Assembly: GCA_038078835.1 (NCBI GenBank)
Contig: JBBTQI010000009.1
Coordinates: 3,714-67,713, forward strand
Length of the DNA: 64,000 nt
Reading direction: 5' to 3'
Source: Patescibacteria group bacterium
GTDB lineage: Bacteria > Patescibacteriota > UBA1384 > XYA2-FULL-43-10 > 1-14-0-10-43-13
A program made the translations under genes and the position numbers. Below, one piece after another: positions 8,917 through 31,153 of the stretch; positions within the stretch are counted from its first letter, which is position 1, and the number at the start of each line of letters is the position of its first letter. The notes beneath the pieces were generated by a model. That model made no database searches. It worked only from the letters and a program-made list of their open reading frames with translations, and was not told the DNA's origin.

Positions 8917-9765
8917 TTGGCAAGTAGAGTCAGTGTTGATTTAATGATATCAGTGGATAAAATCAACAGGCATTATTTTGGAAGAACTCGAAGAATTTGC
9001 GCCATTTTGCAAATGGTTCCCTTTTTGCGTTGCCTGATTTTAAACGGCTCGCTGGCCCAGGGGAAAGCCAGGCCGGATTCCGATATCGATATTTTAGTGA
9101 TCGGCCGGGACGGCCGGATCTTTACGGCCCGGTTTTTTATTCTTTTACTCTCGACCTTGCTGGGTGTCAAGCGCTCAAGCGATGATGCCAAAAGTCATGC
9201 CGGCAAGTTTTGTTTTAACTATTTTATGACGACATCATACTTAAAGATCCCCGCCGGCCGCGGGACGGCGATGGATCGATATTGCGCCGAGAATTATTCG
9301 AAAAGCGTTTTGGTCTGGGGCGATAAAAAAACTTTCCGGCGATTTTTTGAGGAAAACGAACGCTTGTTTGCCTTAGCTCAAAAGTCAAAAGACAAAGACC
9401 AAAACCACGGGTTAAAAATTGGTATGAATGAGATTTGCGCAAATATTCTTCGAACAAACTTAAAGCGAGTGAGAAGCTCTCGGCTGATAGGTTTTACTTC
9501 AAACAATACCAGCCGGTACAAACCCCATCAAGATTTTCCGATCTATACCACAATGGTGCGATTGATCGGAATATTTGGCGAGATGATGCTAGGGGGGCGA
9601 TTTGGTGATTGGGTGGAGAGAATCCTAAAAAAGATTCAAATTCGGCGGATCGAGCGCGATCCGCGAACGGCACGACATCCGAATTTAATTGTCTACAACG
9701 ACCAAGAACTGCTCTTCCACCCGCCCGGGAGGAGCCCCGGGAGGAGCATTGACAGTCAAAGGTAA
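8917..9765 (+). CDS. Nucleotidyltransferase-domain protein
   Basis: 'LILNGSLAQGKARPDSDIDILVIG' fits the minimal NTase motif GS-x9-13-DxD. The start codon is uncertain. Confidence 0.5.
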   Translation: MASRVSVDLMISVDKINRHYFGRTRRICAILQMVPFLRCLILNGSLAQGKARPDSDIDILVIGRDGRIFTARFFILLLSTLLGVKRSSDDAKSHAGKFCFNYFMTTSYLKIPAGRGTAMDRYCAENYSKSVLVWGDKKTFRRFFEENERLFALAQKSKDKDQNHGLKIGMNEICANILRTNLKRVRSSRLIGFTSNNTSRYKPHQDFPIYTTMVRLIGIFGEMMLGGRFGDWVERILKKIQIRRIERDPRTARHPNLIVYNDQELLFHPPGRSPGRSIDSQR

Positions 9766-9849
9766 TTTTGGTACGCTTAAAATGCTAAAACGCCCTGTGA
9801 GGTCGAAAGACATTTGCAGGGCCTTTTTGTTTGTGCTATTATATTTTTA

Positions 9850-10398
9850 ATGAAACAGGAGAGGGTGCTATTATTAATTGACGGCAGTAATTTCTATTTC
9901 AAGTTGAAGAGCTTGGATTTGCAAGATCTGCTCTATTTTGATTTCCATCGTTTTGCACGTTATTTGGCAAGGTCAAGTAAGCTTATCAGATCCTGTTATT
10001 ATGTTGGGAGGATTAGGCAAGATGGAACCAAGAAAACAAGGATATTGTTCGATGGACAACAAAAATTAATCGGGCTTCTAAAGAAATGCAACTTTCATTA
10101 TAGCCTTGGTTATTTGCTTAAGAATGATGGTGTTTACCATGAGAAAGGTGTAGATGTTCAAATTGCTACCGATATTTTGGTTGCAGCATATGAAGATATT
10201 TGCGATCGAATAATTCTTGTCTCTTCTGACACGGATTTGTCTCCAGCGATCAAAAAGGCTCAAGAAAAAGAGAAAGCGGTCGAGTATATTGGCTTTTCTC
10301 ATCAGCCAAGCGTGGCTATGGTTTCGGTTTGTAAAGAGTCTAGACTTCTGTCCAGGGAGGATGCAGAGCAATTCATAAAAACAGATAGAAAAGGCTGA
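9850..10398 (+). CDS. NYN/LabA-like (PIN-like) domain protein
   Basis: 'LLLIDGSNFYF...GVDVQIATDIL...IILVSSDTDL' is the LabA/NYN pattern. Start chosen at 'MKQERV', downstream of the terminator that overlaps the longer ORF. Confidence 0.6.
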   Translation: MKQERVLLLIDGSNFYFKLKSLDLQDLLYFDFHRFARYLARSSKLIRSCYYVGRIRQDGTKKTRILFDGQQKLIGLLKKCNFHYSLGYLLKNDGVYHEKGVDVQIATDILVAAYEDICDRIILVSSDTDLSPAIKKAQEKEKAVEYIGFSHQPSVAMVSVCKESRLLSREDAEQFIKTDRKG

Positions 10399-16900: not shown

Positions 16901-18064
16901 TTAGTGCTTAATGTTAAAACGGAACATTGCCACGTCGCCGTCCTGCATCACATACTCTTTGCCCTCGGTTCGGACTAAGCCGTGAGTTTTGGCCCCGCCC
17001 CATCCCTCTTGAGCATAGAGATCTTGCCAGGGAATGATTTCGGCGGCGATAAAACCCTTCTCGAAATCGGTGTGGATCACCCCGGCCGCCGCCGCCGCTT
17101 TGGCGCCTTTCTTAACTGTCCACGCTCGCGTCTCTTTCTCGCCGGAGGTAAAGAACGTCTGAAGTCCTAATAGTTCATACGCTTTCTTAATTAGTATGTT
17201 AAGCCCGGTTTCCTTCATATCTAGAGCCTCAAGGTACTCTTTCTTCTCTACCTCTCCTAGATCATTTAATTCAGACTCAATCCTGGCAGAAATCTTAATA
17301 AACTCCTCACCCCCACCCTCTCCTCTTGGAGGAGAGGAGGTATTAGAATTCCCTTGTCCTTGTAAAGAGAGAGCCCCTCCGCCTTTCCCTCGCCCCTGTG
17401 GGGAGAGGGTTAGGGTGAGGGGTAGTTGTTTTTCTGAAACATTAGCAATATAGAGAACTGGCTTCATAGTGAGAAGCGAGAGCCCCCCAACAACATCCTT
17501 TTCCTGATTATCTAGTTTGGCCTCCCGGGCGTTGCGGCCGCTATTTAGGATATCCTTAATCTTTTGGAGGGCGGAGTGGGCGACCTCCGACTCTTTGCTG
17601 TGGGCTTTTAGCTCTTTTTCGGCCGCATAAAGACGTTTTTCGACTGTCGAAAGGTCGGCTAACTGCAGTTCGGTTTCAATGGTTTTGATATCATCAAGCG
17701 GATCAATTTTATTTTCAGTGTGGACGATGTTAGGATCATCAAAAAACCTCACCACCATAGCAATGGCATCACACTCTCTGATGTGCGCCAAAAACTGGTT
17801 GCCCAACCCCTCGCCTTTGGAGGCACCGCGAACCAGGCCGGCAATATCGACAAATTCAATAGTGGTCGGCACAATCTTGGCCGACTTGGAGACCTCGGCC
17901 AAGGGTTTTAGCCGCTCGTCCGGTACAAGGACCACGCCAACATTAGGATCAATAGTGCAAAAGGGATAATTAGCCGCCTCCGCCTTGGCACCCTTAATTA
18001 GAGCATTAAATAAAGTGCTCTTTCCGACATTTGGCATGCCGACAATTCCGATTTGAAGTGACAT
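16901..18064 (-). CDS. ychF: Ribosome-binding ATPase YchF, with a ~50-aa in-frame insertion encoded by a GC-rich palindromic element
   Basis: G1 'GIVGMPNVGKSTLFNAL', a TGS domain, and 'HTDFEKGFI'. The inserted segment is 'LTLTLSPQGRGKGGGALSLQGQGNSNTSSPPRGEGGG', which corresponds to the long inverted repeat at ~17305-17425. Confidence 0.9.
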   Translation of the reverse strand: MSLQIGIVGMPNVGKSTLFNALIKGAKAEAANYPFCTIDPNVGVVLVPDERLKPLAEVSKSAKIVPTTIEFVDIAGLVRGASKGEGLGNQFLAHIRECDAIAMVVRFFDDPNIVHTENKIDPLDDIKTIETELQLADLSTVEKRLYAAEKELKAHSKESEVAHSALQKIKDILNSGRNAREAKLDNQEKDVVGGLSLLTMKPVLYIANVSEKQLPLTLTLSPQGRGKGGGALSLQGQGNSNTSSPPRGEGGGEEFIKISARIESELNDLGEVEKKEYLEALDMKETGLNILIKKAYELLGLQTFFTSGEKETRAWTVKKGAKAAAAAGVIHTDFEKGFIAAEIIPWQDLYAQEGWGGAKTHGLVRTEGKEYVMQDGDVAMFRFNIKH

Positions 18065-18255
18065 AAAATTCCTGAATTATGAATTAAGAATCATGAATTA
18101 TGCGCCAAACCATAATACCTAGTTCCTACTTCCTAATTCCAATGAATTTTACCAGATTCACCCTCATTTGTCGAACGGGATGGAATTTCAGATTTAATAG
18201 TTATGGTGATGGCAAATTGATTCTTTCTTATTTTGCCCGTATTATTAATCTAATA

Positions 18256-19716
18256 ATGGATGAAGAGCAGTTAATAAAATTACTTATTGAGTTATCGGAA
18301 TTGCCCGCTGAAACAGAATGGGTTGAATTTAAGGTTAATCGTTTTAATCCTGAAGAAGTTGGAAGATTGATATCAGCTCTTTCTAATAGTGCCAATCTAT
18401 GTGGTAAGCAATTTGGTTACCTGATTTTTGGTGTTAAAGACGACAACCATGAGATTGTTGGAACAAGTATTAAACCTAAGATAATAAAGGAGGGAAATGA
18501 GGAAATTGAAAATTGGATAATGAGGGGACTTCGTCCTCATCTTGATTTCAAGATTTATGAATTCAATTGTGATAAAAACACAAGGGTCGTTTTATTTGAA
18601 GTGCCTTCGGCTACAGACTTGCCTGTTTCTTTTATGGATAAGGCATACATAAGAATTGGGAGCTATACGAAGGAATTGTCGGATTATCCGGATAAGGAGA
18701 GACAGATATAGAACAATCCCTCTCATAAAAGCTTTGAAACAGAACCAGCTCAAATTAACGTATCAGACGATAAAGTTTTAGAGCTACTTGATTATCCTGG
18801 TTATTTTGATTTAGTTGCTCAACCTCTTCCGTCGGATAAAGCTCAAATAATTCAAAAAATGGGAGAGGACGGCCTTATCACTAGAAGAAGAGGAAGTTTC
18901 GATATAACGAATCTGGGCGCTATCCTTTTTGCAAAGGATATCGGACTTTTTGAAACAATCAGAAGAAATGCCCCACGAGTAATAATTTATGATGGAAGTA
19001 GCCGGATAAAAACAAAATTTGAGAAGGAAGGGACAAAGGGTTATGCAACAGGATACAGAGGTCTAGTCAGTTATATTAATAGTCAATTGCCAATGAATGA
19101 GGAAATAAAGCAGGCATTAAGAACTGACAATAGGATGTATCCCGAAATTGCAATAAGGGAATTGATAGCTAACGCCCTTATACATCAAGATTTCTCCATT
19201 AGGGGTTCGGGTCCAATGGTCGAGATATTTAATGATAGGATTGAAATAAGTAATCCGGGCAAACCTCTAATTAGTGTTGATAGGTTTATCGACCACTCGC
19301 CCCAATCGAGGAATGAATGTATTGCTGCTCTGATGCGCCGGATCAAAATATGTGAAGAGAGAGGGAGTGGAATTGATAAGGTTATTTTTTGGATAGAAGT
19401 TTTTCAATTACCAGCCCCGATGTTTGAGGTTTCAGAAAATTCGACTAGAGTGACGCTCTTTGCTTATAAGAGTTTAAGGGAGATGGAAAAAACAGACAAA
19501 ATTAGAGCATGTTATCAGCACTGTTGCTTGAAATATGTTTCGAAGGAGAAAACGACGAACACTTCCCTTCGGAACAGATTCAAGATTAAAAATGAAAACT
19601 ACTCGATCGCATCAAGAATTATTGGCGACACGATCGACGCTAAATTAATTAAACTATATGACCCCGAAAAAAGTGGATCGAGAAAGCACTCCAAATACGT
19701 TCCCATTTGGGCTTGA
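18256..19716 (+). pseudogene. AlbA_2 (Schlafen-like) + HATPase_c_4 putative transcriptional regulator, split by an in-frame TAG
   Basis: The N-terminal part has 'EWVEFK...ALSNSANLCGKQFGYLIFGV' (AlbA_2/PF04326-like). The C-terminal part has 'IRELIANALIHQDFS...IEISNPG...RNECIAALMRRIKICEERGSGIDKV' (HATPase_c_4-like). The two ORFs are in the same frame, separated only by TAG at 18709-18711. Confidence 0.55.
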
Positions 19717-20062
19717 TAATTTTATGTGACTCGAATAGTTTTAATGTTATGAAATTTATCAATTATTAAGTTCAGAGAATAACAAATTTATGTGATAACT
19801 AAGATTTTAGGAGGTTTATGCACCTTGTCGTTTTTAAAATGGAAACATTATTGGATTTTTTGTTTACGTTAGTCAAACGAAAGTAAACATAAGATTAAAA
19901 GTTATTTTGGGAAATTACTTTAGCAAAGTACTTTGCTAATCGAGTTCACATCATTAGATTTACCCCCATTTGTCGAACGATTGGTATTGCATTTAAAGAA
20001 AATTAAAATCCCCGCCGGTGAGGACGGGGGTGGGTGGGACTGTTGCTCTACAGCCTCTGCCG

Positions 20063-20473
20063 TCAGGAAATGATGACCTGGATCTGCTTGAGCCAGGTCG
20101 AGCATTGCTCGGCCGCCTCGGTCGGAGCGGTGGTGTCGAGCTTCTTCTTGCGAAACAGGCTTCGACGCTTCTGGGCATCATTTCGCAGGGCGCAGATGGC
20201 CCTGACGAGTGCTTCTCTTGCCAGGCCAAAAGCTTGCCGTCTTGTCTGATCGGAGACATCACTCTGGGAAATGGCTACTGCCAGATCGCGGCAGACCTGG
20301 CAACCCACAACCAGGCGTCTGATCCAGTCAGGCGTCATCACCGATGCGTCGCCATCCTCATCGTGTCCCGAATTAAGGGTGGCGTTTTCAGCTTCGCGAT
20401 TCACCCCATCACTCAGCAGGACTAAGAGCGCTTGCGCGTTCTCCCGTTTGTACACCAGATTTAACCTGACCAT
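20063..20473 (-). CDS. Hypothetical protein (GC-rich island)
   Basis: 136 aa with no recognisable motif. GC content differs from the flanks. Confidence 0.35.
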   Translation of the reverse strand: MVRLNLVYKRENAQALLVLLSDGVNREAENATLNSGHDEDGDASVMTPDWIRRLVVGCQVCRDLAVAISQSDVSDQTRRQAFGLAREALVRAICALRNDAQKRRSLFRKKKLDTTAPTEAAEQCSTWLKQIQVIIS

Positions 20474-29906: not shown

Positions 29907-30140
29907 ATGAGACAATCGAATACAAAAATTCAACCAGGCATCTACCGCCACTACAAGGGCGGCACTTATCGTGTTTTGGGCGTAGCCAAACACTCCGAAA
30001 CACTTGAGGAGATGGTTATTTATGAAGCGCTCTACGATAATCCGATCTCTAAGCTTTGGGCCAGACCGTTATCGATGTTCCTTGATGAGGTTGAATGGCA
30101 GGGGAAGAAGGCAAAGAGATTCACTTTTGTGGTAAAATAA
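29907..30140 (+). CDS. DUF1653-domain protein
   Basis: 'GIYRHYKGGTYRVLGVAKHSETLEEMVIYEALY' is the DUF1653 signature. Confidence 0.6.
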   Translation: MRQSNTKIQPGIYRHYKGGTYRVLGVAKHSETLEEMVIYEALYDNPISKLWARPLSMFLDEVEWQGKKAKRFTFVVK

Positions 30141-30154
30141 GATAAAATGAGAGC

Positions 30155-30568
30155 ATGGAGATAAAAATTCCCCAAAATTCAATCCGGAAATTAAAATCCC
30201 TTGGCGTCGGAGTCGTTTATTTATTCGGTTCGGAGGCACAAGGAACGACTCACTTTGACAGCGATATTAATATCGGTGTCGTTTTTCTCGATCCCGCAAA
30301 ACTTGAGGATACCGGGCGAAGACTCAAACTTTACAATGAGCTGGATGATATTTTTACTGAGGCTATTCCGTACCGGCATATTGATACTGTCCTTTTGCAG
30401 ACTACATCTTTATCGCTTCAGTATGAGGCTATTCGGCCAGGTAAGGTTATTTATGAAACTTCCCCGGAATTCAGGGGTAACTACGAGGAAGCCTTGACAA
30501 AATTTTATCTTGATTTTAAGCCTCTTCTCGACATTCAACATCGAGCTGTGCTGGAAAGGATAAAATGA
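30155..30568 (+). CDS. Minimal nucleotidyltransferase (MntA-like antitoxin)
   Basis: 'VYLFGSEAQGTTHFDSDINIGV' (GS...DxD). Confidence 0.65.
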   Translation: MEIKIPQNSIRKLKSLGVGVVYLFGSEAQGTTHFDSDINIGVVFLDPAKLEDTGRRLKLYNELDDIFTEAIPYRHIDTVLLQTTSLSLQYEAIRPGKVIYETSPEFRGNYEEALTKFYLDFKPLLDIQHRAVLERIK

Positions 30569-30843
30569 TAAAAATACCGTTAAACCAAGAAATGTTAACA
30601 GAACGGCTGATTGATATAGAAAAGAGTATTGATGAATTAGAGAGAATGGGGACACTTACTAAGACTGAATTTTTAAGTTGGACACGGATCGCGAAGCTGC
30701 ATTGCGAGAGATTACCACTTTTAATTTAGAAGCAAGATACGACGATTACAAGGAACGTTTCTATGTTAAAGCAAATGAAAACTATACAAGTGAATGGAAT
30801 GAGAAAGCCAAGGAGTTGTACGAATGGCTCAGAGAGCTAATAT
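30565..30843 (+). pseudogene. Degraded HEPN-domain toxin remnant between two nucleotidyltransferase genes
   Basis: 30565-30717 'MIKIPLNQEMLTERLIDIEKSIDELERMGTLTKTEFLS...' resembles a HepT/HEPN N-terminus. A second frame ending at 30843, '...EARYDDYKERFYVKANENYTSEWNEKAKELYEWLREL', resembles a HEPN C-terminus. No intact ORF remains. Confidence 0.4.
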
Positions 30844-31153
30844 AAGTCCTAAAATTTACCAGCAAGCCAAGAAATACGAGGAGATCCTGAAAAAGAACGG
30901 TATACAAATAACCTCCATGTATGTTTTTGGTTCGTGGGTTAAGGGTACGGCGCATGCCTGGAGCGATATCGATATCGCTGTTGTGTCGCCTAATTTTAGC
31001 GAAGACAGGCAGGCCGAGAGAGTAAGATTAATGTACTTAAGCGAAAAAGTTGATAATGCCATTGAGCCTCACCCTTTCCGGCCGGAAGATTTTGACGATT
31101 TCTATTATCCACTGGCTAATGAAGTTAAGAAAACAGGTGTTAGGTTAGATTAA
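30824..31153 (+). CDS. Minimal nucleotidyltransferase (second MNT-family antitoxin-like gene)
   Basis: 'MYVFGSWVKGTAHAWSDIDIAVV'. Confidence 0.65.
   Translation: MAQRANISPKIYQQAKKYEEILKKNGIQITSMYVFGSWVKGTAHAWSDIDIAVVSPNFSEDRQAERVRLMYLSEKVDNAIEPHPFRPEDFDDFYYPLANEVKKTGVRLD

Follow-up and report, generated by a model that had tools for sequence, protein, structure and literature searches.

Prokaryotic Schlafen proteins are phage-defence effectors that act as phage-activated tRNases, and their commonest architectures combine the Schlafen domain with a HisKinase domain (34.0%) or with HisKinase plus a helix-turn-helix (HTH) domain (19.2%) (PMC13056530). In the prokaryotic Schlafen that has been studied, the tRNase is triggered by phage and the C-terminal domain serves as the sensor (PMC13056530). 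Here we describe a Schlafen-type gene beside ychF in a 64-kb stretch of a Patescibacteria genome (contig JBBTQI010000009.1, positions 3,714 to 67,713), called the window throughout, with positions counted from its first letter. The gene is AT-rich, lies between two copies of a 24-nt direct repeat and is interrupted by one in-frame TAG codon. We consider it likely that this foreign gene was inserted in the ychF promoter with a 24-bp duplication and is now a recent nonsense pseudogene, as opposed to a recoded gene.

The gene resembles the HisKinase/GHKL class of prokaryotic Schlafens (pSlfn; PMC13056530, Nat Microbiol 2026) in several respects. It encodes a PF04326 domain with the Ex4(E/D)xK motif and a C-terminal GHKL-clan ATPase-like domain, followed by a conserved helical tail that is probably HTH-like. 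Its homologues are patchily distributed across many phyla, lie near integrase, toxin-antitoxin and MmeI-type restriction-modification genes, and in some cases sit on IMG/VR viral contigs. Unlike members of the class, the window copy has a stop after the nuclease domain and no flanking defence genes. The pSlfn example that has been tested and mechanistically resolved, RorSlfn5, carries an Ig-like sensor instead of GHKL, so that trigger and activity of the GHKL class are extrapolated.

The same Schlafen and GHKL module occurs in the SLFN-pAgo (RzAgo) fusions of Schlafen, GHKL and Argonaute (bioRxiv 10.64898/2026.05.29.728809), from which the window gene differs in lacking the Argonaute core; the similarity is weak and partial. 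PADLOC found only weak, partial matches, to Schlafen-type pAgo and Aga models. The pAgo model aligns over residues 26-416 (E=6.8e-07), which fits a relationship to these fusions. Applied to six neighbouring proteins, PADLOC found nothing.

A further parallel comes from Photorhabdus laumondii TrlG, likened here by domain content, whose two Pfam domains and their order are those of the window gene. Under heat selection TrlG is lost spontaneously, and the lesions include three premature stop codons in the linker (bioRxiv 10.1101/2020.06.02.129163), the region hit in the window gene. On the other hand, trlG belongs to a three-gene operon (trlG, trlF, trlR) whereas the window gene stands alone, and the temperature-restriction phenotype has no known counterpart in Patescibacteria.

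The surroundings of the gene recall att-flanked islets and integrative elements, which typically occupy tRNA 3′ ends. In both cases a direct repeat surrounds compositionally foreign DNA, and a conserved target would have its function rebuilt on integration, here the -35 box and spacer of a promoter and elsewhere a tRNA 3′ end. The window insert differs in having no integrase and no tRNA, in measuring 1.8 kb with a single cargo gene, and in its promoter target; neither an excised form of it nor an empty site has been seen.

A Schlafen-type gene interrupted by one amber codon

The gene is made up of the following parts:

18256 to 18708, plus strand: N-terminal part, 151 codons, with the complete Schlafen/AlbA_2 nuclease domain
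18709 to 18711, plus strand: in-frame amber TAG in the interdomain linker, at a column that is a nearly invariant Trp (W152)
18712 to 19716, plus strand: C-terminal part, 334 codons and TGA, with HATPase_c_4 at 19204-19458 and the conserved helical tail
18217 to 18245, plus strand: candidate promoter of the gene's own (TTGATT, 17 nt, TATTAT; 9/12, a consensus match only)

From ATG to TGA, positions 18256 to 19716 form a single frame of 487 codons whose only internal stop is the TAG. The preliminary description of this DNA had read two open reading frames (ORFs) as one gene in one frame, without a frameshift, and the two Pfam domains within that frame bear this out. The N-terminal part matches SLFN_AlbA_2 (PF04326; E=8.7e-20, profile positions 1-117 of 118, 71.9 bits against a Pfam gathering cut-off of 25.3) and keeps the catalytic motif as E19-x4-E24-x-K26 (ETEWVEFK, 18310-18333), with all three residues invariant across an alignment of 21 homologues. 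The C-terminal part matches HATPase_c_4 (PF13749; E=1.6e-23, 82.9 bits against a cut-off of 26) and retains E302/N306 and G370/G372 of the ATPase-like domain, likewise invariant in the alignment. An NCBIfam search with the gene product returned no match.

Because the TAG separates the two domains, which would otherwise lie on one polypeptide, we file the locus with the pseudogenes of the Schlafen HisKinase/GHKL(-HTH) class, apart from its functional members. In the annotations of NCBI and other pipelines it appears as two proteins, an 'AlbA_2' ORF of 189/203 aa and the C-terminal ORF of 285 aa, which NCBI lists separately as 'ATP-binding protein'. The two should become one entry, marked as a Schlafen-type defence gene that a nonsense mutation has turned into a pseudogene.

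A search of 5.8 billion clustered proteins retrieved 7999 homologues. Among the matches listed, those with full query coverage are all single chains of 476-497 aa with 54-63% identity, in agreement with the single-polypeptide architecture proposed earlier. No full-length protein in the collection is more than 63% identical, and the sole 100% match among those listed is the 285-aa C-terminal ORF. Aligned with 21 homologues, the amber codon falls in a column where at least 90% of sequences have Trp, and a single G-to-A transition, TGG to TAG, accounts for it. The window protein deviates at 6 of 164 columns conserved at the 90% level, the stop included, compared with 3-15 in intact homologues; by this measure, no decay beyond the nonsense codon is detectable. 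Of the two fates first suggested for the gene, recent inactivation and dependence on read-through, the loss of a nearly invariant Trp in an otherwise conserved protein speaks for the first.

An AlphaFold2 model built from the homologue alignment (mean predicted local distance difference test score (pLDDT) 83.8) places residue 152 in a low-confidence linker block, 151-160 (pLDDT 64), between a helix (145-150) and a strand (164-169). The best full-length structural match in Foldseek is DIP2311 of Corynebacterium diphtheriae (PDB 3lmm; E=3e-19), which sequence searches also find; it is only 14-16% identical and is an uncharacterised structural-genomics entry. Foldseek additionally matched the nuclease domains of mammalian SLFN14, SLFN11 and SLFN13 (E from 9e-05 to 6e-04, probability ~1.0) and, at ~1e-2, the GHKL domains of histidine kinases and PDK.

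By analogy with characterised Schlafens, the intact protein would cleave tRNA when triggered by phage and would need its C-terminal domains to do so; it is presumably an accessory defence nuclease that moves horizontally. Translation would end after 151 residues at a TAG that acts here as an ordinary terminator. Loss of the GHKL domain and the rest of the C-terminal part most likely abolishes regulated activity. Since nuclease activity would depend on the C-terminal domains, the truncated 151-aa product is most likely inactive and the locus a young pseudogene. The candidate promoter of the gene, which would yield a near-leaderless mRNA, is weakly supported, the number of promoter-like matches in the region being that expected by chance.

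Nine assemblies from Hainich well H43, representing different samples and runs, agree in all 61 nt surrounding the TAG: five from ENA (ERZ1292626, ERZ1292629, ERZ1292632, ERZ1292635 and ERZ1292638) and four independent Logan assemblies (ERR3858116, ERR3858118, ERR3858133 and ERR3858135). With nine of nine in agreement, an assembly error at this codon, a concern raised at first, is very unlikely and is excluded as far as the assemblies show. Furthermore, every contig with an identical YchF or an identical right-hand neighbour carries the insert too.

The direct repeat carries the ychF -35 box and spacer

The gene to the left of the insert, its promoter and the two repeat copies are as follows:

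16901 to 18064, minus strand: ychF, encoding the redox-regulated ATPase YchF (Pfam MMR_HSR1 and YchF-GTPase_C), first gene of a ychF-rpsF-ssb-rpsR-efp cluster
18146 to 18174, minus strand: sigma-70-type promoter of ychF, with -35 box TCGACA (18174-18169), a 17-nt spacer and an extended -10 box TG-n-TAAAAT (18151-18146)
18154 to 18177: repeat copy 1, AGATTCACCCTCATTTGTCGAACG, which supplies the working promoter of ychF with its -35 box and spacer, the -10 box being just outside
19956 to 19979: repeat copy 2, AGATTTACCCCCATTTGTCGAACG, the duplicated -35 box and spacer, with TGATGT at the -10 position

The module between the repeats is compositionally distinct. Its GC content is 0.32-0.39 (500-nt windows, 18001-20000) against 0.49-0.50 on the left and 0.56-0.62 on the right, in keeping with its first description as AT-rich, and GC at third codon positions is 0.32 and 0.38 in the two Schlafen ORFs against 0.53 in ychF. 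The repeat copies are 24 nt long, identical at 22 of 24 positions and spaced 1802 apart. They consist of a 13-nt identical core and 11 nt with two C/T differences, which on sequence looks like an attL/attR pair. Between 17000 and 21500 this is the top direct repeat, with a score of 18 that none of 500 composition-preserving shuffles reached (mean 11.7, maximum 16).

The preliminary description was right that repeats bracket the module, and gave their length as 28-32 nt; outside the 24 nt, the 60-nt flanks align locally no better than shuffled sequence does (p=0.36 right, p=0.76 left). Its coordinates for copy 1, 18147-18178, were 10 nt too low, the quoted string lying at 18157-18188. The placing of copy 2 exactly at the boundary to GC-rich DNA holds approximately: copy 2 ends at 19979, and GC-rich sequence begins at ~20010, at a terminator hairpin.

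Within the window, both the 24-mer (at most 3 mismatches) and the 13-nt core occur only as these two copies. With at most 2 mismatches the 13-mer gives 4 matches where 1.9 are expected, the other two being unrelated. A generic promoter motif present at many unrelated sites, the objection that had been anticipated against the repeats, is accordingly rejected for the window. A tRNA or transfer-messenger RNA (tmRNA) fragment as att core was also rejected, as ARAGORN found no tRNA in the window and Rfam had no match in 17800-20400. Beyond the window, the repeat-derived motif GTTCGACAAATGRGNNNRAATCT had three chance matches in JGI metagenomes (two flagellin loci and one unrelated 1.2-kb contig) and none in an IMG/VR viral scan.

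Direct repeats thus stand at both edges of compositionally distinct DNA, as around an att-flanked element. No recombinase has a Pfam match in the insert or among the genes at ~12.9-38 kb, no integrase lies in or beside the insert, and the core is not reused at further junctions in the window. Target-site duplications of transposons and insertion sequences typically measure 2-15 bp; here the duplication is 24 bp, the insert has no transposase and its ends share no terminal inverted repeats. The GC-rich neighbour at 20-25 kb shows no mobile-element hallmark beyond a T4SS-pilin-family gene. With only two repeat copies in 64 kb, no recombinase and a neighbour without signs of an element, the serial integration first proposed for this region finds no support. 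The proposal of att-like junctions survives in part: the repeats are scar-like and surround foreign DNA, but their core is the -35 box and 17-nt spacer of ychF and not an anonymous att core.

In a consensus scan, the ychF promoter is the best match on the minus strand (10/12 plus TG), its -10 box lying ~80 nt ahead of the start codon of ychF. The minus-strand reading of copy 1, CGTTCGACAAATGAGGGTGAATCT, comprises the -35 box and the 17-nt spacer and is followed directly by the extended -10 box. The arrangement GTTCGACA, 17 nt, TAnAnT is kept upstream of ychF in the four nearest database relatives, L025, L109, L111 and L023, whose YchF proteins are 70-75% identical. blastn independently recovered the promoter match in L109 (81% over 47 nt). 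The -35 box and spacer of each promoter, followed by the hexamer at the -10 position, are:

Window copy 1: GTTCGACAAATGAGGGTGAATCTGG, TAAAAT
L025: GTTCGACAAATGAGCTCAAATCTGA, TAGTAT
L109: GTTCGACAAAGGGGCGCGAATCTGG, TAAAGT
L111: GTTCGACAAATGAGCTCAAAGATGT, TAGAAT
L023: GTTCGACATCAGGCGTGGTTTGTGG, TAGAGT
Window copy 2: GTTCGACAAATGGGGGTAAATCTAA, TGATGT

Copy 2 keeps the -35 box and spacer, and its hexamer lacks the key A at position 2 of the -10 box, so that copy 2 is probably an inactive promoter relic. In none of the four relatives does a Schlafen gene lie beside ychF. Downstream of ychF they conserve the order rpsF-ssb-rpsR-efp, and the upstream neighbour differs in every one, which marks the ychF promoter as a synteny break.

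Three features of ychF and its 5′ untranslated region (UTR) were seen alongside. Logan contigs of at least three sequencing runs break at 18074/18102, in the ychF 5′ UTR, with a 29-nt overlap, which suggests a branch in the assembly graph; as the position is in the 5′ UTR and off the repeat, the breaks do not point to an empty-site allele, and they were rejected as a sign of population heterogeneity. The ychF 5′ UTRs of the relatives have in common a GC-rich hairpin ending in GGGAATGACA (GAGGATGACA in L025), located at 7945-7975 in L023, 2667-2700 in L111, 808-852 in L109 and ~1905-1950 in L025. The motif is absent from the AT-rich 5′ UTR of the window; it may be part of the leader or a repeat dispersed through these genomes. 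Within ychF itself, 17302-17423 (minus strand) holds an imperfect 36-nt inverted repeat, 75% complementary, which encodes an in-frame Gly/Pro-rich insert of ~35 aa (...LTLTLSPQGRGKGGGALSLQGQGNSNTSSPPRGEGGGEEF...). The insertion point is length-variable, relatives having different inserts or none there, and the insert has the look of a small palindromic element that an essential gene has tolerated.

Reconstruction of the proposed insertion

The right-hand part of the insert and the adjoining DNA contain:

19717 to 19955: non-coding tail of the insert, 239 nt, 25-28% GC, without a homologue in any fetched locus
19920 to 19939: perfect 20-bp palindrome TTAGCAAAGTACTTTGCTAA inside the tail, 16 nt before repeat copy 2
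20000 to 20029, minus strand: intrinsic terminator serving the gene at 20063-20473, with a 7-bp stem of which 6 pairs are G-C (hairpin 20029-20010) and a T-run
Flanks that one repeat copy would join in an empty site: the ...CTGGTAAAAT-side sequence and 19980 onward

On the minus strand, the gene at 20473-20063 and its terminator now come first. After ~30 nt there follow copy 2, the insert, in which the Schlafen gene runs in the opposite direction, copy 1, and finally the -10 box with ychF behind it. Deleting 1802 bp leaves an intergenic region of ~197 nt with terminator, promoter and ychF, in which the terminator lies ~30 nt upstream of the -35 box. The ancestral minus-strand order would then have been the gene at 20473-20063, its terminator, the ychF promoter and ychF. 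Into this, a single AT-rich foreign piece of 1802 bp carrying one gene would have entered between the -10 box and the segment with spacer and -35 box, duplicating the 24 bp of -35 box and spacer. The copy on the ychF side, together with the native -10 box, would form a complete promoter and leave ychF expressible, and the distal copy would remain as a relic without a -10 box. A later G-to-A transition would have turned the Trp152 codon, in the linker between nuclease and ATPase domains, from TGG into TAG.

Two routes could have produced the duplication. The chromosomal promoter may have recombined with a site on the incoming element that resembled it, or a staggered break may have been repaired, with two substitutions arising afterwards. 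The Schlafen gene is the only gene in the 1.8-kb insert, and its coding region alone matches homologue loci at the DNA level (65-68%), the non-coding tail and the insert ends showing no such homology. The palindrome in the tail (halves TTAGCAAAGT and ACTTTGCTAA) has no T-run after it on either strand and could be a protein-binding or recombination site. The tail also holds a 22-codon ORF, MHLVVFKMETLLDFLFTLVKRK (19817-19885, plus strand), with AGGAGG only 3 nt ahead of its ATG; it is probably fortuitous.

Several points weigh against this reconstruction. No strict empty site has been found: the nearest relatives have YchF proteins 70-75% identical and each a different upstream gene, and a YchF scan of genome contigs yielded, among the matches listed, only relatives at ~50-54% identity. 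For this reason the insertion is argued from composition, duplication and promoter logic. There is no recombinase, transposase or pair of terminal inverted repeats to explain a duplication of 24 bp. The copies differ at 2 of 24 positions, which would imply some age if the duplication had been exact, and that age fits a little uneasily with an unameliorated and otherwise undecayed gene; differences already present between the element site and the chromosomal site would dissolve the problem. The word 'recent' is read solely from the absence of further lesions, as there is no close orthologue for a ratio of non-synonymous to synonymous substitutions (dN/dS). Finally, about 3% of prokaryotic Schlafens are unfused (97.1% are fused), with which a 151-aa nuclease fragment may be compared (PMC13056530).

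If a foreign Schlafen gene did enter the promoter and lose its function in this way, the biology is ordinary, that of an acquired prokaryotic Schlafen and a defective member of a known family, with the promoter-preserving duplication as its sole mildly unusual feature. Gain and quick loss of Schlafen-type defence genes would then extend even to a very small Patescibacteria genome from groundwater, and discarding a nuclease that may be self-toxic by way of a linker stop parallels the experimental TrlG case. The 24-bp duplication that preserves the promoter is a single event on present evidence; its recurrence in other genomes would point to targeting.

Alternative explanations

The gene might instead function as a split system, in which the 151-aa nuclease works alone and the ATPase/HTH part, translated from the ATG at 18859 (285 aa) or by re-initiation, acts separately or in trans. 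The N-terminal fragment does contain the whole PF04326 domain with an intact catalytic motif, the C-terminal codons are free of other stops and frameshifts with the conserved residues in place, some prokaryotic Schlafens are unfused (PMC13056530), and the amber state is fixed in all nine assemblies. Yet the full-coverage homologues among the matches listed are without exception single chains, and in the one Schlafen-GHKL protein whose mechanism has been studied, nuclease activity requires oligomerisation, which the covalently attached GHKL domain drives. The ATG at 18859 is the first in frame after the amber codon, has no visible Shine-Dalgarno sequence before it, and starting there would forfeit 49 linker and domain codons. 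A young pseudogene predicts the lack of decay equally well, and we regard a split system as unlikely.

To a similar degree, we think it improbable that the repeats are two independent regulatory sites, one serving ychF and the other a second minus-strand transcript starting from ~19950, such as an antisense RNA against the Schlafen gene. Copy 2 retains a perfect -35 box and spacer, weak promoter-like sites occur on the minus strand of the insert tail, and the 20-bp palindrome lies 16 nt away. Against this, TGATGT in copy 2 misses the A at position 2 of the TAnAnT found in five native promoters, and no gene or Rfam RNA lies downstream of copy 2 on the minus strand. The spacer is kept at 15 of 17 positions between the copies, which a shared sigma factor would not need, the motif is found nowhere else in the 64 kb, and each copy stands precisely where the compositional anomaly begins or ends.

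A more specific form of the insertion would make the module a single-gene defence cassette without its own recombinase, mobilised in trans and homing to the ychF promoter through a mimic of its -35 box and spacer, optionally with the amber codon as a tolerated or leaky throttle on a toxic nuclease. Such a cassette would be a promoter-targeting counterpart of integration into tRNA genes, rebuilding the promoter of an essential operon; we give this idea little credence.

Returning to the stop codon, we find it highly unlikely that read-through, suppression or recoding of the TAG lets a little full-length protein be made, an arrangement that might throttle a toxic nuclease. The downstream frame is perfectly preserved and the stop falls in the linker, where an odd residue might be tolerated; defence nucleases are also often toxic (PMC13056530). 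Nothing else in the window favours read-through, which had been the other fate proposed at first. Among 44 long ORFs tallied in the window, stops are TAA in 21, TGA in 13 and TAG in 10, the amber codon included. Because nine other ORFs end in TAG, it is a normal terminator under the standard code, and the avoidance of TAG that accompanies stop-codon recoding (pyrrolysine, TAG-reassigned codes) is not seen. The aligned residue is a plain Trp in the nearest homologues, and we know of no genetic code that assigns TAG to Trp. The window contains no tRNA, and no Rfam element lies near the locus.

The least credible account of the stop is that it stems from an error of sequencing or assembly, or is a minor allele. 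The only argument in favour is that metagenome-assembled genomes do in general contain single-base errors. Against it stand the same 61-nt region in five ENA and four independent Logan assemblies and the lack, among 5.8 billion clustered proteins, of any full-length protein with more than 63% identity.

Other accessory genes and insertions

A NYN-domain gene at 9814-10398 is also compositionally foreign (GC 0.38) and lies beside a nucleotidyltransferase gene (8917-9765); it has no flanking repeat of the kind found around the Schlafen gene. In L111 (4223-4474) and in L112 (1685-1936), an 83-aa gene of the 23S_rRNA_IVP family lies between ychF and rpsF on the opposite strand. This further accessory insertion in the conserved ychF cluster comes from a relative from Hainich aquifer well H51, and in L111 no direct repeat flanks it.

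An AT-rich cassette at 30155-31153 contains two nucleotidyltransferase (MNT-type) genes and, between them, overlapping ORFs of 54 and 55 aa. It is bracketed by a 14-nt match (13/14), TTTTRTGGTAAAAT, at 30125 and 31197; both sites include an extended -10 box, and the match is probably due to chance. The 55-aa ORF matches the C-terminal third of HEPN (E=0.0075), so that the cassette probably holds a frameshifted HEPN toxin gene, and hence a second decaying accessory gene in the window.

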